From positions 523-64,522 of the IMG/VR virus record IMGVR_UViG_3300021440_000017: a DNA stretch of 64,000 nt. One strand, 5' to 3'. Positions 3,605-29,521 of the stretch are shown piece by piece. A model generated the notes under the pieces. That model was not told the origin of the DNA. It ran no database searches and worked only from the letters and a program-made list of their open reading frames with translations. The translations under genes and the position numbers were made by a program. Positions within the stretch are counted from its first letter, which is position 1; the number at the start of each line of letters is the position of its first letter. Source of the DNA: a virus.

Positions 3605-3693
3605 GCTGGAATTTCCAAGTTGCATTGTCTTCCGGGTTTCCAGCATTGACCCGTCGGCAACCACAGTTTACCACAGTCCGGCTACCGTAGCAA
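3605..3693 (-). promoter_or_regulatory. sigma70-type promoter A plus conserved structured leader
   Basis: TTGCTA-17-TAAACT with TG extension; leader stem GCTGGAA/TTCCAGC enclosing ACC...AACTTGGAAA. Confidence 0.75.
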
Positions 3694-4281
3694 ACCGAAC
3701 TTGGTGAGAATCGCCAGGGCTCTGCCGTAGTCACACCCGGTATCTGAGCGGAACGTCAGCAGGTAACGGTCGGATTCCGAAGCGCCCATGTTGAAGTCGT
3801 GGTACACGTCGGTGTTGAACAGGATCGCCCCGTCTTCCACGCAGAACGTCCGGGTGCATGCCGGCTCGCGTAGCCCCGGCGTGTTCAACTCCAGTTCACG
3901 GGAGACCACGAGGTCGCCACGCTTGAGGTTCACACGGGGCGCATCCGACATGGTGGCTTCGGCGTACCACGAGGTCCGGCAGTCGTTGACGGAGCCCGTG
4001 CTGAGCACGTAGTTGATGCCCATGCGGAGACTGCCGCCGTCTTTGTGCGGACGGTAGTAGTAGCCCGGCGAGGTCACGAACAACTGCACGAACTTCGGTA
4101 CGAGTCCGAACTCCCGACCACCAGGGATCTCCGCGATCATCGCTGAGGCCACATCGTCCGGGTACGAGAACTTGCGGAAGCCCGGCCGTTCGTATTTCAA
4201 CGTGCGAGGCCCAGCAGCGAGTTCACGGATCACGTGCTCTCGTTCATGGTGGAACACACGGTAGTATGAGTCAGAGGTCAT
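3682..4281 (-). CDS. 2OG-Fe(II) oxygenase / cupin-like protein
   Basis: HxD (RPHKDG), distal His (ILFNTDVYHD) and following Arg (DRYLLTFR). Confidence 0.7.
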   Translation of the reverse strand: MTSDSYYRVFHHEREHVIRELAAGPRTLKYERPGFRKFSYPDDVASAMIAEIPGGREFGLVPKFVQLFVTSPGYYYRPHKDGGSLRMGINYVLSTGSVNDCRTSWYAEATMSDAPRVNLKRGDLVVSRELELNTPGLREPACTRTFCVEDGAILFNTDVYHDFNMGASESDRYLLTFRSDTGCDYGRALAILTKFGLLR

Positions 4282-4290
4282 GATGTCTCC

Positions 4291-4602
4291 TTAAGCGATG
4301 CGTGCTCTGAACCAGGCCATCGCGTCTTTCATGTACTGCACACGAGCAGCACGAAGTTCCGGGTCGCCCCGGTCGGACACGTAGATCACAGGGCCGTTCT
4401 CCATTTCGATCTGCAACACGTGGATGCTGACACACAGCCACGAGAGGCCGAACAGGTAGCGTCCATCCGTGTACGTGCAGACTCGACCCTCTCTCCAGTA
4501 CCGAAGCCCTCGGTACGCGGCCACGAGTTGTGCGCGCAGCACGCGCCAGGGCCGGATCATGTAGTAACCGTCCGGGATCGCCGGTACGTGCTTCACTGCC
4601 AT
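4291..4602 (-). CDS. hypothetical protein
   Basis: GAGGAG SD, operon packing. Confidence 0.6.
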   Translation of the reverse strand: MAVKHVPAIPDGYYMIRPWRVLRAQLVAAYRGLRYWREGRVCTYTDGRYLFGLSWLCVSIHVLQIEMENGPVIYVSDRGDPELRAARVQYMKDAMAWFRARIA

Positions 4603-4612
4603 ACGTTGCTCC

Positions 4613-4942
4613 TCAGGTGATGACTGGAATCGGGTCGGCCTCTCGAATCTCGATGCGCACGACTTCGCGGATGGAAACCCGCTCGCCTTGAATGCTCTTG
4701 CGCGTAGCCACCGAGAACCGACGCGAGAACGGCAGTTCCAGAGGCGTCCACGACTCGGCGGCGATGGCAGCCACCGTCTTGGGCAACAGCGTGGCGCACA
4801 CTTTGGGGTGCACCGTTTTGAGCAACTCGTCCAGGGTGATGCCCCGGGGTCGCCTGTACTCCACCACCCGGGAATCGCTCTCGCCCTCTTCTTCGTCGCC
4901 GAAGACTACGCGGTCCACGTTCAGTTCGATGATGATGCGCAT
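4613..4942 (-). CDS. hypothetical protein
   Basis: GGAGGG SD, operon packing. Confidence 0.6.
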   Translation of the reverse strand: MRIIIELNVDRVVFGDEEEGESDSRVVEYRRPRGITLDELLKTVHPKVCATLLPKTVAAIAAESWTPLELPFSRRFSVATRKSIQGERVSIREVVRIEIREADPIPVIT

Positions 4943-4944
4943 GT

Positions 4945-5406
4945 TCAGGCCCTCCGAGCCAGTTGGATTTCACGAGCGCGGTCAGCCACTCGCTTCTGCC
5001 TGAGCTTCAGAGCTTTGCGCTCCGCCGCGTCGAAGTCCTTGCGACGGAACTTGCCGAGCACGCCGACTCGGATGTGCACTGGAGCCTGCTTGCGATGCAC
5101 GCCGTGGACCACGAAATGAAAGCGTATGCCCTCGGGCGTCACGCGGTCCACGAGCGTGACGCCGGCGTCGGGCTTGCACTTGCAGTCGTACACCGGACGG
5201 TGCTTCTCTGCGTGTGCGGTTGCCGCGTCGAATGCCGGTTGCACGCCTCCGTACTTGGAGTCCGAGAAGAAGGCGTTGTGCTCGGGTGCAGCCTTGAACC
5301 GGACTTGCCAGCCGTTGAACTTCTCGGAAGTCACGCGGCTGACGTTCGTTGGTATTGAGAACCATTCGCTGCCCACGCGGAGCTTGCGGTAACGAACGGC
5401 GATCAC
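4945..5406 (-). CDS. AP2-domain-like DNA-binding protein
   Basis: GWQVRF...FFSDSKYGG..PAFDAA.AH resembles AP2 domains of phage/apicomplexan type; GTG start overlaps upstream TGA. Confidence 0.55.
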   Translation of the reverse strand: MIAVRYRKLRVGSEWFSIPTNVSRVTSEKFNGWQVRFKAAPEHNAFFSDSKYGGVQPAFDAATAHAEKHRPVYDCKCKPDAGVTLVDRVTPEGIRFHFVVHGVHRKQAPVHIRVGVLGKFRRKDFDAAERKALKLRQKRVADRAREIQLARRA

Positions 5407-5846
5407 AGCCAGGCCTCCGCCAGCGCCAGGGTTTCGTAGAGCGCGGGTATGCCCTTCTCGCCGGCGAACGCCGTGAACGTCCTGCTGTTGGTGTCCACGC
5501 GGATGCTGATGTACCGCAGAGAGGCAGACGACGACGGCCACTGTTCCGTGCTGGACAGCCGGCGCACGACTTCCGCGAAGTGGTGCAGTAGGTCTAGGGG
5601 CAGCCAGCGATTATCCGAGGCTGCGATCTTCAGCGGAGCCAGCAGCGTTTGCAATTCGCAATCGTGCAACAGCCGTTGAAAGTCCCGCTCGGTCATGGCT
5701 TCTTCGAGCTTCGTCGCGGTGGTCACCGGGCTGCCATTGCGTAGCCCTTCGTAGTAAGCGTAGACCTCATCGCGGGTGCGTGTCTCGCCCTCGACCAGGT
5801 GGAAGTGCGACTCGACGAGAATCGCAATCGGATCAGCGTTTGCCAT
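5403..5846 (-). CDS. hypothetical protein
   Basis: AAAGG SD, operon packing. Confidence 0.6.
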   Translation of the reverse strand: MANADPIAILVESHFHLVEGETRTRDEVYAYYEGLRNGSPVTTATKLEEAMTERDFQRLLHDCELQTLLAPLKIAASDNRWLPLDLLHHFAEVVRRLSSTEQWPSSSASLRYISIRVDTNSRTFTAFAGEKGIPALYETLALAEAWL

Positions 5847-5855
5847 GATGGCCTT

Positions 5856-6071
5856 TCAGCAAGAGAACAGGTAGTGGAAATTACCCGGATGGTCCGGGCA
5901 CGGATGCGGGTTGGCCTCGCCGGAACGGAACGTCGCATCACTCGACGGCGCCCACTGCGACCTCACACCTGTCGGGTGCTCGGTGTTGAGCCGCACGGTG
6001 GCCTCTTCGGGTTTCAGACACGTGCACACGCTGGCGTAGCACAGCCCGACGGAGTACGCTTCAAACTCCAT
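5856..6071 (-). CDS. small Cys/His-rich protein
   Basis: SVCTCL...HPTG...NPHPCPDHP...HYLFSC. Confidence 0.6.
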   Translation of the reverse strand: MEFEAYSVGLCYASVCTCLKPEEATVRLNTEHPTGVRSQWAPSSDATFRSGEANPHPCPDHPGNFHYLFSC

Positions 6072-6498
6072 GAACGCCTCCGCAACGGTGGATCACGGAG
6101 TTCAGGAGCCCTGGCGCCGGCGTGAACCCATGCCGGACGTACCACGCACACAGTTCTTCCGTGCTCGGGTTCCCAACTCCGTAGCTGTTGATCGGACACC
6201 AAATGCCTGCGTTGTGCGCCGTGGCAAGTCCGATCACGGTGGTCAGCAGGTTCGAGCCGATGCCCTGACGGCGTGAGCCATGCGGTACGATGATCCGGTT
6301 GAAGAACCAGATGGGGCGGCTCCAGAACGGGTCTTCGAGGTCCAAGGGGAAGCCGAGTTCGGCATTCGATTGGTACACGCGCGTGGCGTCTTCACGGCCC
6401 GTCGTGTACACCGTGAGGTCGGCCGACGCGATGTGCGCGACACCGACTTTGACGTACGCGGAGACGCTGCGGTCTACGACAGAGGCGACGACTTTCAT
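6061..6498 (-). CDS. GNAT acetyltransferase
   Basis: Acetyl-CoA motif VPHGSRRQGIGSNLL and terminal WYVRHGF. Confidence 0.8.
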   Translation of the reverse strand: MKVVASVVDRSVSAYVKVGVAHIASADLTVYTTGREDATRVYQSNAELGFPLDLEDPFWSRPIWFFNRIIVPHGSRRQGIGSNLLTTVIGLATAHNAGIWCPINSYGVGNPSTEELCAWYVRHGFTPAPGLLNSVIHRCGGVHGV

Positions 6499-7517
6499 TG
6501 GATGCTCCCGAACGTCGCGGCCAAGAACGACAGCACATCGGCCTTGGCGCGTTCACGTGACTCCGGGTGGCCGCCTGCATGCCGCGTTGCCGGAGTCATG
6601 CACGCACGCAGGTACTCTTGCAACTCGTTGCCCCGGTACTGCTGGCCGGTCTTCCAGTTCACCGAAGTGCCGTAGGCGACATCGGTTTCCGTCGTGCAGT
6701 CCGTCATGGACTGCGCACGGAACTCGTGGTACGGCCCGAGAGCATCGAAGCCGTGGCCGGCGCCTGGGTACGTGACGAGCTTGAACCCGGCCTTGGGGTA
6801 GTATTTGCGCACGAGGTCTGCGCAGTGCTCGTTCGGCGTCCAGTCGTCGGCGTCCCCGTTGAGCATGAGCACCGGCGCGTCGTTGCGGTTGCGGGAGTCC
6901 ACAATCGCCGACGAGCACGAGAAGTACAGCGGAATGTGCGCGACGAACTTGCGCGTGGTCACCGCCTCGGCGAATCGGTTGATCCACGTGAGGTACGCGA
7001 CGGACGCGCCGCGCGAGAAGCCCATGATGGCGATGCGCTTCGCGTCAATCCGGGGGTGCGTCGCCAGCAGATCGAGAGCCTTCAGCGCGTCCACCGTCTG
7101 CGACGCCACGGACACGGAGAAGAAGTTGCCCGTGTACGTGTCACGCACGCCACGGCCCGTGTAGGTGTCGATCACGAACGCAGCGATGCCAGCAGCGTTC
7201 AGCGTGTCGGCCCACACGCGGAAGTCTTTGCGCAGCACGCCGTCGCTGCCGTGAACGATGATCACGGCGGGCACCTTCTGGCCGTCAGCGACCACCGGCA
7301 TCTTCAACGTGCCGTGCACGACGACGGGTTCACGCTGCGGGTACCGGAGTGCCTGGAAGTCCGGCACCGAGAACGAGTTGAAGTAGATGCGGCCTGCGGA
7401 CTCCGCGTCGAGCGCCGTGACCGGAGCAGTTGCCGGCGCGGGAGCCAGTTCGGGTTCGACGGCGTGTGCCATCACGGATGCCAGTGCAAGCACCAGCGAC
7501 ATGAGAATGCGGTTCAT
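6495..7517 (-). CDS. exported alpha/beta hydrolase (dienelactone hydrolase family, Ser nucleophile)
   Basis: Signal peptide MNRILMSLVLALASVMAHA; HG, GFSRG, NGDADDWTP and YPGAGHGFD motifs. Confidence 0.85.
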   Translation of the reverse strand: MNRILMSLVLALASVMAHAVEPELAPAPATAPVTALDAESAGRIYFNSFSVPDFQALRYPQREPVVVHGTLKMPVVADGQKVPAVIIVHGSDGVLRKDFRVWADTLNAAGIAAFVIDTYTGRGVRDTYTGNFFSVSVASQTVDALKALDLLATHPRIDAKRIAIMGFSRGASVAYLTWINRFAEAVTTRKFVAHIPLYFSCSSAIVDSRNRNDAPVLMLNGDADDWTPNEHCADLVRKYYPKAGFKLVTYPGAGHGFDALGPYHEFRAQSMTDCTTETDVAYGTSVNWKTGQQYRGNELQEYLRACMTPATRHAGGHPESRERAKADVLSFLAATFGSIQ

Positions 7518-7966
7518 AGCGGCCCTTCGTAGCCAAGGTGGATGGTGGTGGCCCACTCTGAGTGGGAGATTCGGAGTTGCTGTTGCGTCAGCGCAGCGAG
7601 GTCGCGCACGCTCGGCTCACGTGTGGTCACGGCGTCCCCGAGCATCAGCGCGGTACGAACTCGGTGGAGTTCGACACACAGGGGTTTGAAGCCCGGTGGT
7701 TTCACGGCGCGCAGCTTCTGTTCTTCGGCCGCGAGCGCGATTGCCAGCGCGCAGACGATCAGGCCCTTGCGCGCCGGCGTTACCGGTGGCCGGTGATCTT
7801 CGCGTTCGAGCCAGGCGCGAAGTTGGGTTTCGTGCAGTTCCAGGTACGGCGTGCCCGAGTTCACGTACACGTTGAGCATCGGCCCTACGAAGCAGATGCG
7901 GATGTCAGCCCTGGTGCCGTAGTGCATCAACAGCCACGTGTACAGTTGGGTAAGCAACTCGCTCAT
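7514..7966 (-). CDS. hypothetical protein
   Basis: GGAGG SD, ATGA overlaps. Confidence 0.6.
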   Translation of the reverse strand: MSELLTQLYTWLLMHYGTRADIRICFVGPMLNVYVNSGTPYLELHETQLRAWLEREDHRPPVTPARKGLIVCALAIALAAEEQKLRAVKPPGFKPLCVELHRVRTALMLGDAVTTREPSVRDLAALTQQQLRISHSEWATTIHLGYEGPL

Positions 7967-8364
7967 GGTGCCTCCACAGTGAATCGGGCTTCACGCTTCA
8001 ACAGCCGGAACAACTCGAACGCGAACTCTTGCTTGGACACGGCAGCCGTGCACGAGAGCAACAGGTGCAGCCCGGTGCATTCTTCACCATGGACCACCAC
8101 GGGCTCGTTGAGCACAGTGTTCGCGTAAGCGAGGTCGAACAGCGCGTCGTAGTCGAAATCGTACACGAGGCGCCCGGCGGAGAACTCGGGCTTCACTGCG
8201 AAGCTCAGCGTGCGGTACAGCCCGTTCATGATCGCGTGCTCGATGTTTGCGCGCGGCACCGTCGTCGCCACGTAGCTGGACATGGGTTTGCCTGCCAACG
8301 TGTGATGCCACCAGCGTGCGTCGAACTTCCCTTTGTTCACGGTGACCGTGATCTTCATCGTCAT
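7963..8364 (-). CDS. hypothetical protein
   Basis: AAGGAG SD, overlap packing. Confidence 0.6.
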   Translation of the reverse strand: MTMKITVTVNKGKFDARWWHHTLAGKPMSSYVATTVPRANIEHAIMNGLYRTLSFAVKPEFSAGRLVYDFDYDALFDLAYANTVLNEPVVVHGEECTGLHLLLSCTAAVSKQEFAFELFRLLKREARFTVEAP

Positions 8365-11618: not shown

Positions 11619-11816
11619 TCAGTGCAGAACTCGGCGCGCGATCATCGTCAGCGCCTTGATCTTCGTGTTCGGATTCCGAGTCCGGTAGAACTCGGAGCGT
11701 GCGGCAGCGTCACAGACTGCCTGTTGCGTGCAGTGAACATGCACTGTGACGATCACCGCCTGGGGTGCTACGTCCGCGATGTCCACCACGTACGTGACTT
11801 CGTGACGGGGCCTCAT
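11619..11816 (-). CDS. hypothetical protein
   Basis: ATGA overlap. Confidence 0.5.
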   Translation of the reverse strand: MRPRHEVTYVVDIADVAPQAVIVTVHVHCTQQAVCDAAARSEFYRTRNPNTKIKALTMIARRVLH

Positions 11817-12211
11817 TTGCGAACCGGCATCGGCCGAGTTGCCGCAAAGCCGCCTTCGGGAAACTGCTGCGTGGTCGGAAACGGAACTTGCGTTACCGCG
11901 AAGCCCCCAACGTGCAGCGGCGGCTCGATGCCGTCACGTCCGCCCGTGCGGCTGTCGTTCGCAGCGCGTTCGACCGGCGCCGGCGGCAGCCTGGATTCGG
12001 CCATGCGAAGTCGGAGCTTGGTGGCCTCCAGTTGTTGCTTCACGATGTCCAGTTGCTTCACGACGCCGGCGTGCGCGTCGCGCCCGGCAGACACGCGCAG
12101 CTTGAGCATGCGGTTGTCGTTGCGCGCCTGCACGAGACGAAGTTGCAGCACGACGATGATGACGAAGGCAGCAGCGATGCTGACACCCATGAGTGAAATG
12201 ATCCAGTACAT
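11813..12211 (-). CDS. N-terminal TM plus coiled-coil protein, first gene after promoter B
   Basis: MYWIISLMGVSIAAAFVIIVVL; AAGGAG SD. Confidence 0.7.
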   Translation of the reverse strand: MYWIISLMGVSIAAAFVIIVVLQLRLVQARNDNRMLKLRVSAGRDAHAGVVKQLDIVKQQLEATKLRLRMAESRLPPAPVERAANDSRTGGRDGIEPPLHVGGFAVTQVPFPTTQQFPEGGFAATRPMPVRK

Positions 12212-12224
12212 GACTCTCCTTGTG

Positions 12225-12312
12225 GCCGAAATTTCCAAGTTCGTGTCGTCCGGTTTTCGGCGCTGCGACCTTCCGACAACCACATTTTACCAGAGAAAAT
12301 GCGGGTCAGCAA
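12225..12312 (-). promoter_or_regulatory. sigma70-type promoter B plus conserved structured leader
   Basis: TTGCTG-17-TAAAAT with TG extension; leader stem GCCGAAA/TTTCGGC enclosing ACC...AACTTGGAAA. Confidence 0.8.
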
Positions 12313-13022
12313 GTGAATTTTTCACGGGTTTCCACCGGGTTTTCGAGCGAACTTGGCGGGGTTGAAGCAAGGCGCTTGAAACGTGCGACGCGCCGCAGTA
12401 GCGCGGGTCTGAAGAACGCCAGGAGGTCTGCATACTCAGGCCACTTGGCCTCGAAAGCCAAGAGTTCAATCTCGATGTACCTGATGTCATCTTGCACAGT
12501 GAAGCTGCCTAGAACAGGTTGCATCGACTGGACCATGAGGAGCCAGCGCATGCAAGGTACTCGCTTCAGTGAGCCAGGCAGGTCATGTGTGTGATGCAGC
12601 ACGATGTGGTAGGCCAGCGTGATGATGGTTCTCACAGGCTCTTTCGTGTTCAACTTCGTGAACAACGCAGTCAGACAACGGTTGAGCAGTGCAGCTTCCT
12701 CATACCAGCGTTTGCGTTGCTCACGTTCAGCCTGAGTGAACGCTGCCGCATAGCTGGCACGCCCCGGACCCTTCTCTGGAAGGCGCGATAGTAAAGCCCC
12801 GGACTCAGAAAGGTAGAACCTTTTGGGGAGCTTGCGATCATTGACATCCGGCACCTTGGACACGTAAGGGACCTGAACATTGACAAACGCATCCGGACTG
12901 GTGGTCTTAGGCCATCGAAGATGCAATTCCGGGGGTCCGATTCCGACTTCAGGGGGCACGCAGCCTATTCCATGAACCATGTAGAAGTAGTCTACGGACT
13001 CCCGAGAATTGACGTACAGCAC
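12306..13022 (-). CDS. hypothetical protein, lower GC
   Basis: 238-codon ORF starting 4 nt after the helicase stop; start codon uncertain. Confidence 0.55.
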   Translation of the reverse strand: MLYVNSRESVDYFYMVHGIGCVPPEVGIGPPELHLRWPKTTSPDAFVNVQVPYVSKVPDVNDRKLPKRFYLSESGALLSRLPEKGPGRASYAAAFTQAEREQRKRWYEEAALLNRCLTALFTKLNTKEPVRTIITLAYHIVLHHTHDLPGSLKRVPCMRWLLMVQSMQPVLGSFTVQDDIRYIEIELLAFEAKWPEYADLLAFFRPALLRRVARFKRLASTPPSSLENPVETREKFTC

Positions 13023-14614: not shown

Positions 14615-16165
14615 TCACATCGCGTAGAAGCCGGGGATCAGCCGCTCGCGGATGGTGCTCCAGCGTTCCATGTTCGGGAACTTGCCCTCGAAGTACGCAT
14701 CACGCAGTTCGCCCAGCTTCTCCTGGTCCGGCGTCTGCATGTCGTACGCCACGAAATCCGAGCCTTCGCGCTCGACACGGATGTAGCCGCGCAGACTGCG
14801 CTTCATGTGGTCCTTGTCGGTCTTGGGGTCCTTGAACATCGGCACCTGCTGACCGTTGATGATCGAGTTCGTGGCCTTGTACGCATGGTTGTACGTGTCC
14901 CGCGACACCAACTGGTAGGTGTAGCTGCCGATGCCGTACACCATGTTGGACGAGCAGAAGCCCCCGTCGAACATGCGCTGGTTGATTTCGGTGCCACGGG
15001 CGAGGTTGATGGCGTCCCCGTAGATGCCGCCGACATGCGGGTCGAGCAGCCAGTGCCCGGTCTGCGTGCGATGCGTCGCCGTCGTCTCCGGGTCGAACAC
15101 TTCGAGCATGCACCGGAGCAGCCCCTTCTGTTCCGGCGAACCTTGATCGGCATCGTCGTCACCCATCACGATCTTCACGGGGTCGCCCGAGTCCGGACGG
15201 ATCACGTACTTGGCGAGTCCGAACATGTCGGGTTGCCGTGCGAGAATCGCGGGCTTCAACTGGCGCAGGCCTTCGGTCGCCATCCACCAGAAGTCGTAGC
15301 TGTCGTTCACGTGGGAGACGATGCCACGCGGGTACAACTCGGTGATGAGGCGCTTGACGAAATCGACCTCACCTTCCGGGCCGTTCTGCGTGACCACGCC
15401 GTGCTCCGTGGCCGGCACCGAGCCCCCGAGCATTTCCATGCTCGCGTCGGCCATGTAGGCCCACTCCAGATAGTCCAGGGTGGAAATGCTGTCGGTGCCG
15501 GTGAAGCACGCTGAGTGCCCGATGTCCATGCTCCCGTCGAACACGCCGGACATGCCACGGAACGCGAAGTTGTGTCCTTGCCAGCGGATGAAGTTGGCGA
15601 TGCCGCCCGTCTTGTCGCAGAACTGCGTGAGCATGCGCCGGAACTCGTAGGCCGTCGTTGCGTTCGTCGGGGTTTTCCACACCTCTGATGACAACTGCGA
15701 CTCGATGTACGCGGCGACCCAGGATGTCGGAGCACCGCGTGTGGACCGCACCGTGAACGTCGGCACCCGCAGGTTCACACGCGAGCCCTCGGGCAACTGC
15801 TTCACGTGGATTGGCAGGAAGCCCAGGTCGTGCAGCGCGCCGATCTGTTCGGTCGAAACCGCCTTGGGTCCGAGCGCATAGTCCATGCGACGCTGGAACC
15901 GTGCAAGCACCATAGCCTTGGGCTTGCTGAAGAAGGTCTGGTGCCAGATGGCGTGCAAGAACATGAGCTTGCCCTGGAGGCCGAGCCACACGGTCTTGCC
16001 ATCCCAGTCCGGCAGCACCTGCGCGTGGCCGGCGCCGCGTGCCGTGAAGTTCAGGTACAGTTCTTCGGTGCCCGGCCGGTGTTGGCGCATGTGCCCCGGC
16101 TTGTAGAAGTCGGCCAGATGCGGCGCGAAGATGAAGTCCATCGGGTCCAGTGAATTCGGGATCAT
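14615..16165 (-). CDS. nadV: nicotinamide phosphoribosyltransferase-like enzyme (Nampt/NadV; candidate Namat of NARP1)
   Basis: ADFYKPGH, HNFAFRG, VPATEHG, IRPDSGDP, IYGDAI, SRDT, KDPKTD motifs. Confidence 0.9.
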   Translation of the reverse strand: MIPNSLDPMDFIFAPHLADFYKPGHMRQHRPGTEELYLNFTARGAGHAQVLPDWDGKTVWLGLQGKLMFLHAIWHQTFFSKPKAMVLARFQRRMDYALGPKAVSTEQIGALHDLGFLPIHVKQLPEGSRVNLRVPTFTVRSTRGAPTSWVAAYIESQLSSEVWKTPTNATTAYEFRRMLTQFCDKTGGIANFIRWQGHNFAFRGMSGVFDGSMDIGHSACFTGTDSISTLDYLEWAYMADASMEMLGGSVPATEHGVVTQNGPEGEVDFVKRLITELYPRGIVSHVNDSYDFWWMATEGLRQLKPAILARQPDMFGLAKYVIRPDSGDPVKIVMGDDDADQGSPEQKGLLRCMLEVFDPETTATHRTQTGHWLLDPHVGGIYGDAINLARGTEINQRMFDGGFCSSNMVYGIGSYTYQLVSRDTYNHAYKATNSIINGQQVPMFKDPKTDKDHMKRSLRGYIRVEREGSDFVAYDMQTPDQEKLGELRDAYFEGKFPNMERWSTIRERLIPGFYAM

Positions 16166-17038: not shown

Positions 17039-18475
17039 TCAGGGTCGTAGGATACCTCCATTCTGTAGCAGCGTGATCGTGCGTGCAGCCGTCAGCGGCG
17101 TCACGCCAGGGATCGCGCATAGGTTTTGGAACACACGGTTTCGCGGGATAGAGAGACGACGAAGACCGCGAGCATGGCCGACCAGCGCAAGCGCCAGAAA
17201 CGCCCCTAGGGTTCTCACGTTCACGGCGGTTAGCGCAGCAAGCATGCCCTGATCCATCGGCACGTTGTCGAACCCGAGCCCCGAGCGGTAGTGCACGAAG
17301 TTCACGTGCAACGTCGTGGTGTCCCGAGCGATGGCCGTGGCATCAGCAACCGCTCGGTCGAATGCCGCAGCAGCACCCGCAGGAGCTGGCACGAACACCG
17401 CAGGTGCCACGTCTTCTGGCCTCGGCACCAGTTGTTCGGCTACGCGATTGACAACTTCGTCCGGGTCTTGCTCTGCCATGTCCTGCGCGTTGATCTCCTC
17501 TTCGTCTTCGTCGTCGTTTCGACGCACTCGGCGACCACGGTAGACACGACGACGCGGAAGCTCATCCTCGTCTTCTTCTTCGTCTTCCACTTCCTCCTCT
17601 TCTTCACCTTCGTCCCATTCGTCGCCTTCGTCTTCGTCCTCGAGTCCACGCGGGTACCAGCGAAGACCGGCTTCGGTTGCCCACGCTTGCAGCGCCGTGG
17701 TCAAAGCGTCGTCGATCTTGGCGTTGGCGAAGCCTCGGACTTGCACAACCGCGTTGTGGTCCGTTCGGACTTCAATGGTAGCCAAGGGGCGCTCACCAGC
17801 GGTACCACGGATGCTGTAGATCACCGTGTCCTTGCGTCCGAAGTACGAACGGACACAGTGGGACATCGTCGCGGACTCCGCTTCGTACGCGGGTCGCGTG
17901 TCGAGCTTCACGAGGAGCACTGGTGGGTCCACGTGGTCGAACGCCGTGGTTTCGACTACGGTGACGCCCTCGGTCAACGATGACATGAGCTTGGCTTTCG
18001 CCAACTGACGATCCCACAAGGCCACAGCGTCACGCAAGTGCGTCACGGTCATGCGGATGTCACGAGACGGCAACGTCAGCAGGTAGTCAGCCCAATGACG
18101 GTACATGTCCACTTCGTCGTCACCACCGGGCACCACCACGAACATCAGCGTGTTGTCTGCCAGTGCGGAAGCAGCCCACGGCGGCAACTCCGCAGGGTTC
18201 ACACTGTGAACAGCGTTGCGTGCCACGGCCCCGATGTCGAGGTCGATGTGGCAAGCCGTCAGCGCTTTCTGAATGATCGCAAGCCAGGGGCTGCGGATTT
18301 CACGTTCGGCCATGACCGGTAGTGCAGGCCCCTCGTTCAGAAGCCAGCGACGGAACGTCGATGTCCACCAGCGCTGGACATGCGGAGCGTCCTTGTACCG
18401 TTTGGCAAACCCCGTGACCCACTCGTCAACGTCGGGGACGTTGAGTACGTTGCGCGCCGGGGTGGCGGCTGCCAT
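17039..18475 (-). CDS. PcfJ-like domain protein with acidic linker and C-terminal HhH/alpha-CTD-like helical domain
   Basis: ESATMSHCVRSY...IYSIR...LATIEV...VVQVRGFAN; long E/D tract; C-terminal VRTLG...LCAIPGV. Confidence 0.7.
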   Translation of the reverse strand: MAAATPARNVLNVPDVDEWVTGFAKRYKDAPHVQRWWTSTFRRWLLNEGPALPVMAEREIRSPWLAIIQKALTACHIDLDIGAVARNAVHSVNPAELPPWAASALADNTLMFVVVPGGDDEVDMYRHWADYLLTLPSRDIRMTVTHLRDAVALWDRQLAKAKLMSSLTEGVTVVETTAFDHVDPPVLLVKLDTRPAYEAESATMSHCVRSYFGRKDTVIYSIRGTAGERPLATIEVRTDHNAVVQVRGFANAKIDDALTTALQAWATEAGLRWYPRGLEDEDEGDEWDEGEEEEEVEDEEEDEDELPRRRVYRGRRVRRNDDEDEEEINAQDMAEQDPDEVVNRVAEQLVPRPEDVAPAVFVPAPAGAAAAFDRAVADATAIARDTTTLHVNFVHYRSGLGFDNVPMDQGMLAALTAVNVRTLGAFLALALVGHARGLRRLSIPRNRVFQNLCAIPGVTPLTAARTITLLQNGGILRP

Positions 18476-18710
18476 ACGCGATCTCCTTTCCGAGCACGTG
18501 AACAACAGTGGTCTTGACCTCACAGGCCACAGCCATGTCGAGGTTGACACCGTGGATGCCATGGTTGGGCAACAGTGCTTGACGCGCAGCGGTTTCCGAG
18601 TACCGTGTGGCCTTGCCCAGGTCCGGAGTCCAGTACGGGTTGTCCGTCATGTCGCTGAACGTCAGGTACTTGCCCTTGGCGTTGCGCAGCACATACAGTG
18701 CGCTACTCAT
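18426..18710 (-). CDS. hypothetical protein (YxLRNxxGxYL...WT.D...A motif)
   Basis: ATGA overlap. Confidence 0.55.
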   Translation of the reverse strand: MSSALYVLRNAKGKYLTFSDMTDNPYWTPDLGKATRYSETAARQALLPNHGIHGVNLDMAVACEVKTTVVHVLGKEIAYGSRHPGAQRTQRPRR

Positions 18711-20833: not shown

Positions 20834-21206
20834 TGTCGCCTCCAGAGAGTTCGGCCAGCGTTCGCTCCACTGCCTTGCGCACTCGCGGCACCCACAGTGG
20901 AGACGCGCGGAGTTCGGTCAGCAGCGCCTCGACGTTCGGCTGGAAGCCGATCCAGACCTCGGACACCGAGGAGCTGATGACCACGATCTTGTTCTCGTTC
21001 TTCACGAGGTCGCGGGCGGCCACCTTGGACTTGACCACGAGCTTGGTCTTGCGGCCCGCGACCTTGATGCTGAGTAACCACTTGGCATCTGCCGGGTTCT
21101 TCGACCGGGTGCGCTCCAACTTGGAGAACGCAGCGTCGCCCAGGTACGGCAGCAGAGCCGTCAACCGGGCTTCCAGCGCGAGTTGCAGTTGTGACTTGTC
21201 GCTCAT
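20811..21206 (-). CDS. hypothetical protein
   Basis: AAGGAG SD. Confidence 0.65.
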   Translation of the reverse strand: MSDKSQLQLALEARLTALLPYLGDAAFSKLERTRSKNPADAKWLLSIKVAGRKTKLVVKSKVAARDLVKNENKIVVISSSVSEVWIGFQPNVEALLTELRASPLWVPRVRKAVERTLAELSGGDNADTADH

Positions 21207-24058: not shown

Positions 24059-24094
24059 GGAACCTCCTTGTGAACGCGGCCGAAGCCGCTGATG

Positions 24095-24370
24095 TCAGAG
24101 CATATCGAGCACGACGTTAGCGGCATCGACGAACGATGCTGCTTGCTTTCTTGTTTCTTCCGTATCGTCTTTCAACAACGAACGTGCTTGCAACTGCAAC
24201 GCTGCGAACAGTACCTCGCGTAAGAGCCTGTGCCGCTCAAGCACTGCTAACTGATACTCACTGGGCTTATGTCTTGCGGCATTCGCAGCGAAACTTGTGC
24301 ATGCCGCATTCATTTCACGTGCTGCCCGTTGTTCGCTTCCGATTGTACGGAGTGGTAGTTGTAGTTTCAT
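24095..24370 (-). CDS. hypothetical protein, AT-richer, first gene after promoter C
   Basis: MKLQLPLRTIG...; GAGGA SD. Confidence 0.6.
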   Translation of the reverse strand: MKLQLPLRTIGSEQRAAREMNAACTSFAANAARHKPSEYQLAVLERHRLLREVLFAALQLQARSLLKDDTEETRKQAASFVDAANVVLDML

Positions 24371-24383
24371 GGTTGTCCTCTTC

Positions 24384-24461
24384 GCTGAATTCTCCAAGTT
24401 CGCTCGGGTTTCAGCGGTTGACCCGGCAACCACATTGTACCACATCCGAACTCGGGGTAAA
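24384..24461 (-). promoter_or_regulatory. sigma70-type promoter C plus conserved structured leader
   Basis: TTTACC-16-TACAAT with TG extension; leader stem GCTGAA/TTCAGC enclosing ACC...AACTTGGAGAA. Confidence 0.7.
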
Positions 24462-24463
24462 CC

Positions 24464-24682
24464 CTAGCGCGGACGCGGGTGCTGCGCCGGGTACAGCAGG
24501 CGGTACAGCCGCCGGACCACGGCGATCAGCACGAACATCCAGACGACTAGCGCGAGGCCCAGGTAGTCGCGCACGGCGTTGCGCACGATCAGTGGTGCCC
24601 ACAGTTCGGAGCCGGTGCCCACAAGGGTGAACACCGCGAGCGTGACGGCCATGCACCAGTCCTTGAACCTCGTGAACGTCAT
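24464..24682 (-). CDS. two-TM membrane protein
   Basis: AVTLAVFTLVG... and LGLALVVWMFVLIAVV. Confidence 0.55.
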   Translation of the reverse strand: MTFTRFKDWCMAVTLAVFTLVGTGSELWAPLIVRNAVRDYLGLALVVWMFVLIAVVRRLYRLLYPAQHPRPR

Positions 24683-25362
24683 GATGCGCCCCACTGAAGC
24701 TCGGAGAGTTCGCAGGTGAAGAACTTGCGGAACCGGTTGTACAGCGCTGTGATCTCCTCGGTGGTGGCGCGACGCACGAACACGTTGCGGCCTATGTCCA
24801 CCAGTTCCCCGATGTTCGCCCATTCACCGTCAGCGGTGTACGTGACGCCGACGCGCGTGCCTGACTTGAGGTACATCTGCTGAGGGTACTTGATGACCAC
24901 CAGGGGCTCTTCGGTTTCCGGTTCGTCACGGGTCACCAGCGGCGTGCCATCGAGCCGCCACGTGTTGCCCGTGGCCGACACGCGGACTTCGCGGACGATG
25001 GCCGTGCGCAGGAACCTCGCAAGGTCCGCGTCACCGTAGTGCGCCTTCGTGTACGGCGGCAGCAGACCAGAGACTGCCGCTTCCACGGACTCGAACACCG
25101 TGGCGTCTGTGGGCGCCACTGAAGTTTCGTCGCCGTCGTGCTCGCTGTTGTGCGTCCCTTGCATGAGGAACGTCGTGCCCTTCGGGTTCGTGACCGTGTA
25201 CCCGACCACGTGCGGGTCGTTCATCATGGGCCCCACGATGGGGTCGCGGTTGACGATCAGCCCGTCGGTCGCCAGCGCTTCGTCCAGGTAGTCGCTGGCG
25301 TCGTCGCGGTTGCGTTGACCGTGGACGGCGACGCCCACGACGAAGTGAAAAACCTTGCTCAT
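24679..25362 (-). CDS. hypothetical protein
   Basis: GGAGG SD. Confidence 0.65.
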   Translation of the reverse strand: MSKVFHFVVGVAVHGQRNRDDASDYLDEALATDGLIVNRDPIVGPMMNDPHVVGYTVTNPKGTTFLMQGTHNSEHDGDETSVAPTDATVFESVEAAVSGLLPPYTKAHYGDADLARFLRTAIVREVRVSATGNTWRLDGTPLVTRDEPETEEPLVVIKYPQQMYLKSGTRVGVTYTADGEWANIGELVDIGRNVFVRRATTEEITALYNRFRKFFTCELSELQWGAS

Positions 25363-25643
25363 ACGGCCTCCATGTCACGAGTTGGAAATACCAGGTCCAG
25401 GGGCGGCGCTTCGCCGGCGACGAGTTCATCGCCATCCAGCGGCGTGAAGCTCGGCTCGCTCCAGAAGATTTCGACGCCGTTGTCGTCGAGCACGGGGCTG
25501 ACGGACCACACAGGGTAGCCATAGTCGCCCTCGTCGGACTCGCAGATAATGCGGCTGACGAGCGTGACGAACATCCCGGCGTACTGAACGTAGACGCCGG
25601 GGTCTGTGATCTGGACGCGCTGCCCAGGGTAGAGAACACTCAT
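25359..25643 (-). CDS. SH3/KOW-like small protein
   Basis: LYPGQRVQITDPG...YAGMFVTLV; GGAG SD. Confidence 0.5.
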   Translation of the reverse strand: MSVLYPGQRVQITDPGVYVQYAGMFVTLVSRIICESDEGDYGYPVWSVSPVLDDNGVEIFWSEPSFTPLDGDELVAGEAPPLDLVFPTRDMEAV

Positions 25644-26032
25644 GTACGTGCTCCAGGAAAGTACTTGGGTGAGAACCAGTGATGGGTCTTCGAGCCCGGG
25701 TTGTTGAATTGCATGATCCACAGTTCGGGGAACTGCTCAGGGTACCGGATCATGGCCCGATGCATGGCGAACGCATCAATCTCGTCGTGGCAGAACTCCA
25801 GCACCCGGGCGACCTTGTCGTCCATGGTGGTGCCGTAGATTGCCCAGCCACCAGTGGCTTCCACGATGGGCGAGCCCCGGTACGAGTACCAACGACGGCG
25901 GAACTCCACAGTCGTCGGCGTCGAACCCGGGCCCTCCAGCATGTAGCCGGTGACTTCGTAGCCCCGATCAGCGAGGTACTGCTGTTGCTGATCGGGGCTC
26001 ATGGCATTCCACCGGTGAATGCTCATGTTCAT
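25640..26032 (-). CDS. hypothetical protein
   Basis: operon packing. Confidence 0.6.
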   Translation of the reverse strand: MNMSIHRWNAMSPDQQQQYLADRGYEVTGYMLEGPGSTPTTVEFRRRWYSYRGSPIVEATGGWAIYGTTMDDKVARVLEFCHDEIDAFAMHRAMIRYPEQFPELWIMQFNNPGSKTHHWFSPKYFPGART

Positions 26033-26035
26033 GGG

Positions 26036-26281
26036 TCAGGCCCAGAAAGTGCGGACTGCACGCGCGAACGCTGCGGCCGGCGTGCCGCCCTCTTCCCAGG
26101 ACTTCCACTGCGCGCCGGTGCGCAAGCCGGCGTAGAACTTGCCTTCTTCCACGACGACGGACAGACGCGGCAGGCCCGGTGCGGACACCGTGATGTGACG
26201 ACGGAACCGCCGGAAGCGCACGGGCACGGCCTCGCGGTTGAGGCTGATGACACGGGTGACGAGTTTGGACTTGGAAGCCAT
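26036..26281 (-). CDS. basic hypothetical protein
   Basis: MASKSKLVTR... Confidence 0.55.
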   Translation of the reverse strand: MASKSKLVTRVISLNREAVPVRFRRFRRHITVSAPGLPRLSVVVEEGKFYAGLRTGAQWKSWEEGGTPAAAFARAVRTFWA

Positions 26282-26314
26282 GATGATCTTTCGTTTGGGC
26301 ACTGTGGCCCGATG

Positions 26315-26327
26315 GTTGATATTGGTG
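26315..26327 (-). promoter_or_regulatory. 13-bp intergenic motif CACCAATATCAAC, copy 2
   Basis: Identical to 9703-9715. Confidence 0.5.
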
Positions 26328-26369
26328 AACGTACTAGCAGTTGGGTTCTCTGGTGGTGGGGCCTCCTAG

Positions 26370-26630
26370 TTAGACAAGGTGAACGTGCTTGCGCAACGCG
26401 CGCATGACCTGGGAGTAGCCGTGCTTGTCGAACACGTCACGAACGAACGAGTTCTCTTCAGCGGACACGAACATCGCGGGCCTGTCAGCATCGAGTGCAG
26501 CTTCCAGTGCCGACTCGTTGTCCACGGGCTCGCCGCACTCGATGCCGCAAGTCACGCAGTCGCTGCCGATCTGCTCCCACACGGCGTAGCACACACGGCT
26601 CAGCCGGGCAATGACGGTGGCGTCGATCAT
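26370..26630 (-). CDS. hypothetical protein
   Basis: GGAGG SD. Confidence 0.6.
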   Translation of the reverse strand: MIDATVIARLSRVCYAVWEQIGSDCVTCGIECGEPVDNESALEAALDADRPAMFVSAEENSFVRDVFDKHGYSQVMRALRKHVHLV

Positions 26631-26902
26631 GATGCCTCCAGGGTCAGCGGGTAGCTCTTGCGCTCGCCGCCGAGGTCGATGATGAAGCCCGAGAACTGCA
26701 CGCGCGCGAGCTTCCGTGCTTTGCACGTGGGGCACCACGTGTAGGTACCGTTCTCCCAAAACGTGGGGCTCTCGGTATCGCCGGGGATCACGTGGCCGTG
26801 TTCGGCGCAGGTGATGACTCCGGTGCCACGAGGTTGCGGGTCAGCGATGATGCCCGCACGAACGAGCTTCAGCACTTGTGAGGGACGGTAGACGGTTGTC
26901 AT
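26627..26902 (-). CDS. zinc-ribbon-like hypothetical protein
   Basis: CAEHGH...WCPTC. Confidence 0.55.
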   Translation of the reverse strand: MTTVYRPSQVLKLVRAGIIADPQPRGTGVITCAEHGHVIPGDTESPTFWENGTYTWCPTCKARKLARVQFSGFIIDLGGERKSYPLTLEAS

Positions 26903-27267
26903 TTGGGTTTCCCATTGGTGACCAGCGCTGCTAGCGCCAGTAGCTGCCAAATCCATACGGAGAATTCGGCGTTGAAGTACGTGCAGGCCAGAGACACGGC
27001 GCACGCGACATTGGCGATTGCTGCTGCCCGTGCTCCGTACCACGGAGGCAGCACCACGAAGTACGTTGCGAGTTCCATCGTGAAACTCGCCAACGCGCGA
27101 CCCAACGTGAAGCCCTTGGAGTGCATGTACGCGAAGTCCAGCACGGTGAACAGCAGGGCTGTCACGAGGTACGCGGCTCTCGTGATTTCCGGGTCACCGA
27201 AGTGCCGGGCACGAGAGAAGAACCAGAGCCGAAGGTGGTCGGCTACCAGGGCGGTCACGAAGGTCAT
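26899..27267 (-). CDS. multi-pass membrane protein
   Basis: three to four hydrophobic segments. Confidence 0.6.
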   Translation of the reverse strand: MTFVTALVADHLRLWFFSRARHFGDPEITRAAYLVTALLFTVLDFAYMHSKGFTLGRALASFTMELATYFVVLPPWYGARAAAIANVACAVSLACTYFNAEFSVWIWQLLALAALVTNGKPK

Positions 27268-27854
27268 GACAGCCACTCGATGCGGATGCGACGGCCCCGG
27301 AGCTTGCCGCGATGGCGCCGGTGAAACGCCTCGGCATCCCGCAGCGCCGTGAAGCGGAGTTCGCACCGGTTGTCGCGGCTGCGCACACGGAGCCCAGTGG
27401 CGACGAACTTGATTGCGTACGTCCAGACTTGGCGGTCTTCCACGTAGTCATCGTCGTCCCCGTCGTCGGGGTACCAGGGCTCGTCGTGCTCGCGCAACTC
27501 GTCGAGTTCGGCGGCCAGCGCGTCGTTGATCTCCCGGCGGCAGCCACGGCACCGGTAGTACACGGGTCCGGCCATGCCCTCGTCAGGGTCACGCATGGCG
27601 AACAGCGGCGTGTCGCCGGTGCCACACCGGTCGCAGCGCCCGATGAACGCGCCGCCGTCCATCGCGGCTTTCTCCGTGCGGTACCGCTCCAGGCACTCCG
27701 CGCACACGTCGAAGTATTCGGCACCGAACGAGTCGGTTTCGCCCTGGATGCGAGCCACCGCACGGCGGTCGTCGTGGTCATCACACACGGCGTCATCGGG
27801 CAGCCGGACATGCGCACCCGGCAGCGTGGAAACGGGTCCAGAAACGTGAGCCAC
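27264..27854 (-). CDS. Cys-rich zinc-finger phage protein
   Basis: CDDH...QGETDSFG...CAEC...CDRC...CRGC; AAAGGAGG SD, GTG start. Confidence 0.7.
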   Translation of the reverse strand: MAHVSGPVSTLPGAHVRLPDDAVCDDHDDRRAVARIQGETDSFGAEYFDVCAECLERYRTEKAAMDGGAFIGRCDRCGTGDTPLFAMRDPDEGMAGPVYYRCRGCRREINDALAAELDELREHDEPWYPDDGDDDDYVEDRQVWTYAIKFVATGLRVRSRDNRCELRFTALRDAEAFHRRHRGKLRGRRIRIEWLS

Positions 27855-27998
27855 AATGGGCCTCCTTTCAGCGTCGGAAGAAGATGGTGACGAACGTCGT
27901 GGTGTCGTGCTGCACACGGCACGCCTCGACGACGAAAAACGAGAACCGGAGCGGTATGCAGCACAACGCCCGGGTGAACAGCGAGTCGCGGCGCGCGA

Positions 27999-28361
27999 TC
28001 ACGATGCGGCCTCCTGCGGAATCACGAACCGCAACATGATGCTGCCCGTGTACAGAACTTCGATGCGCACGGCCACGTGCTTGCCGAGCCCGAGGTTGCG
28101 GTGGTACTCGGCGTCGCCAGCCAGATGCTTGCCCATGCCGTGCTTGCTCTGGTACCAACGAAACCGCTGGGCCACCTTGGTGTTCAGCATCGCCAGCAGC
28201 GGCTCGAAGTCTTCGACCCGGAGCTTCGAGCCCCACACGCGGTAGCTGATTTCCGTGGCCGATGCCGTCTTGTTCGACAACGGCAGCCCGAAGTCAGCGG
28301 CGTGCTTCTCGACCACGTGGGCCATGCGCTTGATCGTCGTCAGCGAAACTTCGTCAGTCAT
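27999..28361 (-). CDS. hypothetical protein
   Basis: GGAGGG SD. Confidence 0.6.
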   Translation of the reverse strand: MTDEVSLTTIKRMAHVVEKHAADFGLPLSNKTASATEISYRVWGSKLRVEDFEPLLAMLNTKVAQRFRWYQSKHGMGKHLAGDAEYHRNLGLGKHVAVRIEVLYTGSIMLRFVIPQEAAS

Positions 28362-29032
28362 GTGCCCTCCGGCAATTTCATGGACTTGACCACGGCAGCG
28401 AATGCCTGTGGCGCGGTAGCAGCAGAGAAGTACCCGTCATCGGCCATGCGGTACACGACTCCAGGCACCTCGTTGTACACGTGAATGACGCCGACCGACT
28501 CACCGCCCGGCGCGTACACCACGTACGCGGTACCCGCATGCGGCGTGCCCGAGCCAATCGGAAACCGCTCTTGCACGCGAAGTTCCACTGAAGTGCCCCG
28601 GTGTTGCACCACCGCCTTCTTCTCGGTGACGATGCACGGGGAGCCCGAAGTTCGCGCCGCGTCGAATGCCGTGGCCCTTTCGGTCATCGCCGCGAAGTCT
28701 GCGTGCTCGGCCACGATGGCCGCACGCCACTGCCCGTGATTCCCGTTCGCGTGCGCCACGCGCAGCCGCTTCAGCAGACGATGGTCAGCCAGGGTGTCGG
28801 TGTCGCCCCTGATGCGTGCAGCACGCGAGTACCAGCCTTCGCGGTACCTCATCACACGCTCGGAACCGGACAGCCTGTCGATGCCACCGTCAGGGTACAG
28901 CACTGCGATGTTCGTGTCCGACACGTACACCACGGCTTCGTCATCAGGCCGTCCGTCGTGGAACAGCAAGTCCGCTTTCAGCCAGTTGCGGCTCAGCAGG
29001 CTGCGATTCGCAAGTTGTTGTTCTTGGTTCAT
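28358..29032 (-). CDS. hypothetical protein
   Basis: MNQEQQLANR...; GGAGG SD. Confidence 0.65.
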   Translation of the reverse strand: MNQEQQLANRSLLSRNWLKADLLFHDGRPDDEAVVYVSDTNIAVLYPDGGIDRLSGSERVMRYREGWYSRAARIRGDTDTLADHRLLKRLRVAHANGNHGQWRAAIVAEHADFAAMTERATAFDAARTSGSPCIVTEKKAVVQHRGTSVELRVQERFPIGSGTPHAGTAYVVYAPGGESVGVIHVYNEVPGVVYRMADDGYFSAATAPQAFAAVVKSMKLPEGT

Positions 29033-29043
29033 GTTGCCTCCGC

Positions 29044-29421
29044 TCAGAACAAATGGTGCGCGAGCTTGGCGAATGCGACGTTCGCCCTGGACGCATAATC
29101 GTGAACATACGAGCCGGGTGCGACGCACGCGCGCGCAATGTAATAGGTGCCTCGGCGCGCTTGCTTCTCGAAGACTTCGACACGGCAGCGGCCCACGCTG
29201 GCAATGCCGATCCGCTTCAAGTTCAGGCCCTTCGTAGCGTCGTCGAACTTGAACTTCACGTTCTTCACGATTCCACGACACCGAACAGCACGCACCACGG
29301 TGCCCGTCCAGTATTGGGTGCCTTCCAGCGCCGGCAGATCGCGCACAGCGTTGGCCTCTGCCAGATCGCACAGCGCAGTGTGATGGCCCTGAATCACGCT
29401 TCCACAGTCATAGCACTTCAT
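29044..29421 (-). CDS. hypothetical protein, first gene after promoter D
   Basis: MKCYDCG...; AAGGA SD. Confidence 0.65.
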   Translation of the reverse strand: MKCYDCGSVIQGHHTALCDLAEANAVRDLPALEGTQYWTGTVVRAVRCRGIVKNVKFKFDDATKGLNLKRIGIASVGRCRVEVFEKQARRGTYYIARACVAPGSYVHDYASRANVAFAKLAHHLF

Positions 29422-29433
29422 GATTGTCCTTCC

Positions 29434-29521
29434 GTTGAAATTTCCAAGTTGGTTTCCGGTGCGGTTTTCAGCGTTGACCTACCGTTGACCACATTTTACC
29501 AGAAAAAACCGGGGTCGGCAA
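29434..29521 (-). promoter_or_regulatory. sigma70-type promoter D plus conserved structured leader
   Basis: TTGCCG-17-TAAAAT with TG extension; leader stem GCTGAAA/TTTCAAC enclosing ACC...AACTTGGAAA. Confidence 0.8.

Follow-up and report, generated by a model that had tools for sequence, protein, structure and literature searches.

What kind of element stands between the early promoters of a large uncultured phage and the genes behind them? The question is raised by a 64,000-nucleotide (nt) stretch of viral DNA (the window; positions 523 to 64,522 of IMG/VR virus record IMGVR_UViG_3300021440_000017), in which a sequence-only reading had proposed four minus-strand promoters of shared layout, each followed by a structured 5' leader in which a covarying stem encloses a loop with an invariant motif. 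Direct reading confirmed the four promoters at their coordinates, and five further copies of the leader, found in three related phages, keep the pairing of the stem with different arms. Judged from these sequences, the element is a conserved RNA hairpin in which pairing has been kept rather than sequence.

The phage that carries it, hereafter the source phage, is a myovirus with a tail sheath gene at 35274-37229 and a guanine-plus-cytosine (GC) content of 62%. It belongs to an uncultured freshwater clade of jumbo myoviruses, distant kin of the phiRSL1-type phages; the nearest cultured phages by sheath are Burkholderia BCSR5, Achromobacter Motura, BcepSauron, and Ralstonia phiRSL1 (36-38% identity). 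The sole public run that contains its DNA is a freshwater metagenome, and none of the public RNA runs searched for this DNA holds it.

Layout of the early-promoter cassette

Read on the minus strand, the cassette has a constant order: a -35 element, 16-17 nt to the -10, the block TGG-[-10]-GTGGT, then GGTC(A/G), a stem-loop, a Shine-Dalgarno (SD) sequence, and ATG, with a leader of 45-65 nt. At the sequence level the promoter matches a sigma70-like extended -10 type (TGGTAAAAT-GTGGT; consensus TTGCYN-N16-17-TG-G-TAAAAT), and the block TGGTAMAMTGTGGT occurs four times where 0.72 occurrences are expected. The core of the leader in the source phage (copies A to D; Table 1) is a 7-bp stem enclosing a loop of 20-26 nt that starts A(A)CC and ends AACTTGGA(A/G)A, so that the loop end reads AACTTGGARA across the four. 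The SD (AGGAG or AGGAC) begins 2-3 nt past the stem, and similarity among the copies ceases at the ATG. A leader peptide was excluded, as an ATG-initiated frame is present only in copy A. The sequence AACTTGGAG also forms the SD context of two other genes, at L127:19249-19265 and L129:3242-3261 (AACTTGGAGAACGTATG and AACTTGGAGGTACATACATG), and the loop motif thus resembles a ribosome-binding site of this phage.

All four promoters are confined to the first 26 kb of the leftward gene arm, which diverges from the rightward virion genes at a control region (29422-29815), and each promoter of the class heads a gene block of 5-12 kb. At promoters A, B, and C the stop codon of the preceding gene falls within the promoter, with no terminator in between. 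Scanning with a profile hidden Markov model covered a 99-kb composite, made of the 83.1-kb IMG/VR record that contains the window and about 16 kb more of a European Nucleotide Archive (ENA) contig of the same phage. This composite holds exactly four full copies (83-99 bits); the next match (9.8 bits) is an inverted fragment. An inverted partial match at 21112-21136 was rejected as coding sequence without a promoter. A stretch of about 18 kb further along the 229-kb contig yielded no fifth copy; about 114 kb of the contig lay outside the scan. The contig, k141_1135534 of assembly ERZ27251996, has 229,055 bases, and the window corresponds to its positions at about 34.9-98.9 kb in reverse orientation; CheckV rates the completeness of the IMG/VR record at 34%.

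Covariation of the stem in related phages

Within the source phage the stem carries two compensatory changes (U-A to C-G in copy B; A-U to G-C in copy A) and one mismatch (C.A in copy D), and a neutral simulation on these four copies alone gave p ~8e-4. Four paralogues by themselves are thin evidence for a stem; the copies of the relatives are decisive. Relatives were reached by sheath homologues in Logan and JGI assemblies (60-74% identity) together with homologues of the rightward gene beside the control region. The early arm could be read in three of them (L168, L169, and L171, with L172 representing the same phage as L171), and these yielded five more copies behind the same promoter, one in L168, two in L169 (L169a and L169b), and two in L171 (L171a and L171b), in phages whose sheaths are 50-74% identical to that of the source phage. 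Their early strands read TGGTA(A/G)AAT(G/A)(T/A)GGT, followed by hairpin, SD, and ATG. As read from the sequence, the arms are CGCAGAA/UUCUGCG and CACCAGA/UCUGGUG in L171, GCUGGU/ACCAGC and CAGUG/CACUG in L169, and GGAGA/UCUCC in L168, and the loops end ACUUGGAAA, ACUUUGAAA, or ACUUGAAAA, keeping the motif ACUU(G/U)GAAA.

A covariance model was seeded with copies B and D and used to realign six copies, after which it was rebuilt and nine copies were realigned. In the alignment of six, 95% of the cells are paired and six of the seven pairs changed on both sides (12 cells). With nine copies plus one partial match to the upstream box described below, 93% of the cells are paired and all seven pairs changed on both sides (20 cells), which bears out the covariation that the sequence-only reading had claimed. 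In both alignments none of 500 shuffles reached the covariation score, and slid controls paired at most 45% and at most 42% of the cells, respectively. RNAalifold independently predicts the same stem; in MAFFT alignments the 5' arm was out of register, and RNAalifold run on them missed the stem. For L169b the hand-read stem and the register of the model differ. Two other helices were rejected as conserved elements: a GGUC/GAC helix that would form outside the stem is lost in the relatives, and an inner helix, CCGG/UUGG, is without covariation and is lost in L171a. A match of the model at L161:6848-6896, in the sequence of contig k141_1135534, was rejected as a transfer RNA (tRNA); a tRNA gene lies at L161:6800-6880 on the plus strand (anticodon loop CUUACAA by eye, probably Val).

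Nor had the sequence-only reading recognised the element as a known family, which held at the four leader sites: with Rfam 15 at the gathering threshold the sole match in the whole window is a tRNA, and at E values up to 5 no match at the four loci overlaps any leader. This tRNA gene (window 188-260, minus strand) matches Rfam tRNA at 66.4 bits. Searches for the exact leader pattern in IMG/VR, JGI metagenome contigs, and 185,579 species genomes returned only chance matches, without promoter or arms, suggesting that the motif is neither borrowed from a host nor widespread. A family-level pattern matched only an unrelated AT-rich coding region in IMG/VR, and neither promoter block nor leader was found in phiRSL1, BCSR5, Motura, or BcepSauron. 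Two other routes to relatives were tried: the nearest non-self homologue of the helicase is 32% identical, and an exact-peptide scan of IMG/VR with the sheath found nothing. The element is a candidate new RNA family, so far only in one uncultured clade.

The early arm of L171 is colinear with that of the source phage, with L171a at the position of copy D and L171b at that of copy C. Directly behind each of these syntenic cassettes the source phage has an extra ORFan (29044-29421 and 24095-24370; two comparisons, both against L171), and apart from this the nine cassettes have unrelated first genes. These observations suggest that the cassette predates the genes under its control and that gene content changes at its downstream edge. 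By these comparisons the cassette appears portable: it precedes unrelated genes, with apparent gene gain or loss directly behind it.

Table 1. Positions of cassette elements and upstream boxes in the window
Copy	Feature	Position	Strand	Remarks
A	-35, TTGCTA	3688-3693	minus	17-nt spacer to the -10
A	extended -10, TGGTAAACT + GTGGT	3660-3673	minus	hexamer TAAACT, 3665-3670
A	hairpin, GCUGGAA / 26-nt loop / UUCCAGC	3605-3644	minus	pair probability 0.88-1.0
A	loop motif, AACUUGGAAA	3612-3621	minus	
A	SD AGGAG (3596-3600) and ATG (3589-3591)	3589-3600	minus	first gene of 183 residues, 3040-3591
A	U box, CCAAGTTCG	3696-3704	minus	in the last codons (T-K-F-G) of gene 3682-4281
B	-35, TTGCTG	12307-12312	minus	overlaps the stop codon of gene 12306-13022
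B	extended -10, TGGTAAAAT + GTGGT	12279-12292	minus	hexamer TAAAAT, 12284-12289
B	hairpin, GCCGAAA / 23-nt loop / UUUCGGC	12225-12261	minus	pair probability ~0.75
B	loop motif	12232-12241	minus	
B	SD AGGAG and ATG (12209-12211)	12209-12220	minus	first gene of 132 residues, 11813-12211
B	U box, CCAAGTTCG	12348-12356	minus	reads P-S-S in the upstream gene; frame differs from A
C	-35, TTTACC	24456-24461	minus	immediately past the stop codon of the upstream gene
C	extended -10, TGGTACAAT + GTGGT	24429-24442	minus	hexamer TACAAT, 24434-24439
C	hairpin, CGCUGAA / 20-nt loop / UUCAGCG	24383-24416	minus	inner helix CCGAG/CUUGG; z = -3.2
C	loop motif, AACUUGGAGA	24391-24400	minus	
C	SD AGGAC and ATG (24368-24370)	24368-24379	minus	first gene of 91 residues, 24095-24370
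C	U box, variant CCGAGTTCG	24447-24455	minus	in the -35/-10 spacer
D	-35, TTGCCG	29516-29521	minus	first leftward promoter in the divergent control region
D	extended -10, TGGTAAAAT + GTGGT	29488-29501	minus	hexamer TAAAAT, 29493-29498
D	hairpin, GCUGAAA / 25-nt loop / UUUCAAC	29434-29472	minus	one C.A mismatch; pair probability only 0.15
D	loop motif	29441-29450	minus	
D	SD AGGAC and ATG (29419-29421)	29419-29430	minus	first gene of 125 residues, 29044-29421
D	U box, extended	29556-29572	minus	15 nt, 93% complementary to 29436-29450; intergenic, upstream of the only recognisable promoter

Proposed function of the leader hairpin, and the upstream repeat

Stem and SD are 2-3 nt apart in seven of the nine copies and abut in an eighth, whereas the predicted start lies 2-16 nt from the stem (11-16 nt in the source phage and L171; 2-4 nt in L168 and L169) and loop length ranges from 15 to 42 nt. 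A fixed spacing to the SD combined with a variable start distance and loop length suggests that selection ties the hairpin to the ribosome-binding site and not to the promoter. The invariant loop motif, kept though the proteins are only 50-74% identical, implies a conserved reader. Our preferred reading, to which we give about an even chance, is that of an early-operon cassette whose leader hairpin would act at the ribosome-binding site on translation and/or mRNA lifetime. A host sigma70-type extended -10 promoter (TGGTAAAAT) would start a short leader RNA, whose hairpin, with a stem of 5-7 bp and a loop of 15-26 nt, would display the loop motif ACUU(G/U)GAAA next to its 3' arm, 2-4 nt ahead of the SD. 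The displayed ACUUGGAAA would then be bound, where the 30S subunit docks, by a putative conserved trans-acting factor. The ribosome or an S1-type component is one candidate; others are an RNA chaperone (for instance Hfq), a translational repressor of the phage, and a nuclease. Translation and/or lifetime of the first cistron would be set in this way. Translational control had been one of two options offered by the sequence-only reading; given the fixed SD distance, it appears to fit better than the other, put/nut-like antitermination, which is weighed below.

Several observations weigh against a hairpin that acts at the ribosome-binding site. The L168 hairpin lies 36 nt from the SD, and then a second hairpin follows. 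The stem is predicted unevenly, with pair probabilities of 0.75-1.0 in copies A, B, C, and L168, about 0.5 in both L169 copies, and only 0.04-0.15 in copy D, L171a, and L171b, and whole-leader z-scores are unremarkable except in copy C. Model-based alignments, being fitted to the covariance model, lean towards structure; the three most distant copies score weakly (10-15 bits) and were accepted because each sits exactly between promoter block and SD-ATG. The transcription start is predicted from the -10 only, as the sole public run is one of DNA, and the trans-acting factor remains a putative component. Finally, a hairpin linked to the ribosome-binding site leaves the upstream inverted copies of the loop motif unexplained.

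Among the genes of the early arm, one of 85 residues at L161:18221-18478, about 22 kb beyond the left end of the window, matches Pfam Hfq PF17209 (28.0 bits with a cut-off of 27; E 1.7e-6). Its product could be a phage Hfq-like chaperone and a candidate reader of A-rich leaders; nothing ties it to the cassette.

The inverted copy of the loop motif, which we call the U box and which the sequence-only reading had overlooked, reads CCAAGTTCG upstream of promoters A, B, and D and has the variant form CCGAGTTCG upstream of C. Its offsets from TGGTA are -31 in A, -64 in B, -13 in C, and -63 in D, so that spacing is similar only in B and D. Nested repeats accompany it in two copies, linking 24459-24469 with 24401-24411 in copy C (a second inverted repeat) and 29527-29535 with 29459-29467 in copy D. 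The repeat is also found in L168, L169b, and L171a, and is weak or absent in L169a and L171b; that of L171a extends over 16 nt and matches its own variant of the motif (ACUUUG with CAAAGU). The energy of the duplex between U box and loop motif exceeds all 284 background windows in four copies and is marginal in A and B. Since the match is copy-specific, it suggests that nucleic acids pair here, and not that a protein recognises a common site; the G.U strand asymmetry of the repeat is mixed across the copies and thus favours neither RNA nor DNA. In the control-region copies (D, L171a, and L168) the U arm should not be part of an early-strand transcript, and direct reading of the control region found no plus-strand promoter that would place it in a transcript. 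The U box may be half of a DNA operator pair, part of an RNA switch that depends on read-through, or a by-product of cassette formation.

Two further features lie near U box D. The minus-strand sequence GCGGAAAATCCGGTGGTTCACGTAGGT (window 29584-29610), upstream of this box, resembles the promoter and leader start CTGGTAAAATGTGGTCAACGGTAGGT and looks like a degenerate second promoter copy, which, if active, would place the U box in a transcript. On the plus strand of the divergent control region, at 29678-29700, a terminator-like hairpin (9-bp stem, then CCCGTTTTTC) separates the U box from a candidate late promoter, TAATTTCA, at 29729; no plus-strand promoter feeding this hairpin was found.

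The U box can be accommodated at the level of DNA if it and the loop motif are two operators that bracket or loop the promoter, in the manner of the gal operators and the phi29 p4 sites, with the RNA hairpin being secondary. The occurrence of the box upstream of all four promoters of the source phage and of three in its relatives, as well as the background comparison of duplex energies, agree with such control. So does its coding context in two of the own copies, where it is read in different frames, which points to selection on nucleotides; in copy D, L171a, and L168 it lies upstream of the only recognisable promoter and should therefore not be transcribed on the early strand. However, a protein that recognises a fixed sequence fails to explain arms that change on both sides while pairing is kept, and the complementarity is copy-specific, reaching past the core that the copies share (to 16 nt in L171a and 15 nt in copy D) and following each copy's own variant (ACTTTG/CAAAGT). 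Moreover, the positions of the box range from -13 to -75, with weak or absent boxes in two copies, and the loop-motif site, at about +37, is beyond the polymerase footprint. We consider control at the DNA level unlikely, though not negligible. An RNA switch that depends on where the transcript originates would use the same repeat differently: in read-through RNA the U box would pair with the loop motif and open the hairpin, in locally started RNA the hairpin would form, and translation, processing, or decay of the first gene would differ accordingly. Read-through RNA should exist, given that no terminator precedes promoters A, B, and C and that stop codons lie inside them; long-range pairing is predicted once upstream sequence is included (probability 0.72 in copy B and 1.0 in copy D), and in copy C and L171a the G.U pairs of the duplex exist on the early strand only (-21.8 vs -15.6 and -34.8 vs -28.2 kcal/mol). 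Yet the box is strongest in the control-region copies, where an upstream early transcript is not expected, the pairing is not predicted in A or C (probability 0-0.05), copies B, D, and L169b favour the opposite strand, and the SD is free in both conformations, all of which makes such a switch distinctly improbable. A further proposal is that loop motif and upstream sequence evolve together, forming around the promoter an inverted repeat that is specific to each copy and reaches 16 nt in length, the leader being a two-state device that forms a hairpin in locally started RNA and a long-range duplex, in RNA or DNA, with the upstream copy. We regard this proposal as rather doubtful; if true, the phage could treat read-through and local transcripts differently or couple promoter activity to leader structure. 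We know of no described phage cassette with a promoter-bracketing inverted-repeat layout.

Processive antitermination, in which the leader RNA alone (put-like) or together with a phage protein (nut-like) would modify RNA polymerase to pass the terminators of the operon, is suggested by the place of the element directly behind every promoter of its class, each heading a long block. Like the element, put and nut are promoter-proximal structured leader RNAs in phage early operons. The HK022 put RNA consists of two adjacent stem-loops of about 70 nt and acts in cis on RNA polymerase, and lambda nut combines a boxA (CGCUCUUUA-like) with a 5-bp boxB hairpin that has a GNRA-like pentaloop. In the cassette, by contrast, only one helix is conserved, the inner helix of the loop being without covariation and failing in L171a; direct reading found no boxA-like sequence in any of the nine leaders, the loops are far from pentaloops in length, and spacing follows the SD rather than the promoter. 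The internal hairpins that the sequence-only reading had assigned to the operons also were not confirmed: shuffling the sequence gives more terminator-like sites, on either strand, than are present (16.0 vs 10 and 11.9 vs 7), leaving no evident terminators to overcome, and tight gene packing leaves little room for Rho. Antitermination is hence very improbable. We give a slender chance to an explanation in which the cassette is kept only as promoter, ribosome-binding site, and homology patch for gene shuffling, with a hairpin that has no RNA function. The unrelated first genes and the extra ORFans behind the two cassettes syntenic with L171 would follow from it, and the promoter-early stem-loop (PeSL) cassettes of T4-type phages (Arbiol et al., 2010, PMC2839356; Comeau et al., 2014, PMC4122927) are documented as acting in gene shuffling (PMC2839356). 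Recombination would nevertheless favour identity, and not fully diverged complementary arms around an invariant loop across phages whose sheaths are as diverged as these.

Relation to known cassettes and other features of the early arm

PeSL cassettes resemble the element described here in several respects. Both are composite repeats of about 100 bp that span the interval between one gene's stop codon and the ATG of the next, both combine a sigma70-like early promoter with a stem-loop and an SD, and in both the genes behind are ORFans. PeSL cassettes are also sites at which related phages gain or lose genes; a similar pattern may hold here, where the source phage has an extra ORFan directly behind each of two cassettes. 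In PeSL, however, the stem-loop is G/C-rich, lies within or just before the promoter, and terminates upstream transcription, with about 50 cassettes per genome. Here the hairpin stands in the 5' untranslated region beside the SD; its stem is A/U-rich, its large loop contains an invariant motif, and a U tract is lacking. There are only four copies in at least 99 kb, each heading a multi-gene block, in another phage lineage. The source-phage hairpin lies 11-16 nt past the predicted start, and our terminator scan does not list it, unlike what is expected of a PeSL stem-loop.

The start-associated sequences (SAS) of Cluster K mycobacteriophages and their extended form (ESAS; Pope et al., 2011, PMC3203893) provide a second comparison. 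They too are conserved repeats found at the translation starts of some non-structural genes, with a suspected role in translation initiation, and the ESAS likewise is an inverted repeat with a variable spacer immediately upstream of an SD-containing box. In the ESAS, though, the arms are 17 bp long with a subcluster-wide consensus and a spacer of 4-13 bp, whereas here they are 5-7 bp, covary, and have no consensus; the conserved part is in the loop, and the element, unlike SAS and ESAS, is joined to a promoter. The 13-bp SAS GGGATAGGAGCCC, found 3-8 bp before the start codon in Cluster K, is absent here.

Leader hairpins that stabilise mRNA at its 5' end or enhance translation include those of E. 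coli ompA, B. subtilis aprE, and the early-RNA stabiliser of phage SP82. They share with the present leaders a hairpin near the mRNA 5' end with a strong ribosome-binding site close behind, most closely in L168 and L169, where it lies 2-4 nt from the predicted 5' end. They differ in that the source phage and L171 have 11-16 unpaired nt before the stem, and that those stabilisers are not known to have a counterpart of the invariant loop motif. Taken at the level of sequence, the element is of a kind already known, a cassette of promoter, stem-loop, and ribosome-binding site before early ORFans, that departs from PeSL, ESAS, put, and nut in their defining features. Large phages repeatedly use such portable cassettes for early genes whose function is unknown, and the role of the hairpin is still unsettled. 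The present case is unusually clean, with few copies, compensatory changes at orthologous positions, and an invariant 9-nt loop motif, and is a tractable model for finding the reader of that motif, be it ribosome, chaperone, repressor, or nuclease. The inverted repeat that brackets the promoter is a feature outside current models of such cassettes. As a compact part for gene expression, the cassette could also be of use in high-GC hosts, probably betaproteobacterial ones.

Related promoters were seen in the control region of more distant relatives, at L166:4270-4345 and L167:4280-4350 (minus strand; sheath 60% identical). There, 2-3 tandem overlapping TGGTAAAAT(G/A)TGGTAAAAT units repeat every 10 bp, the perfect palindrome TATATTAG-N6-CTAATATA stands a short way upstream of the -35, and the leader has diverged. 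The GTGGT that follows the -10 in the source phage looks like a remnant of such a tandem -10. Elsewhere in the early arm, PcfJ-like paralogues are encoded at window 17039-18562 and L161:13883-15058, with an L171 homologue at the syntenic place, and the arm also carries NAPRTase-like (14615-16165), PRPP-synthetase-like, and ClpS-like genes.

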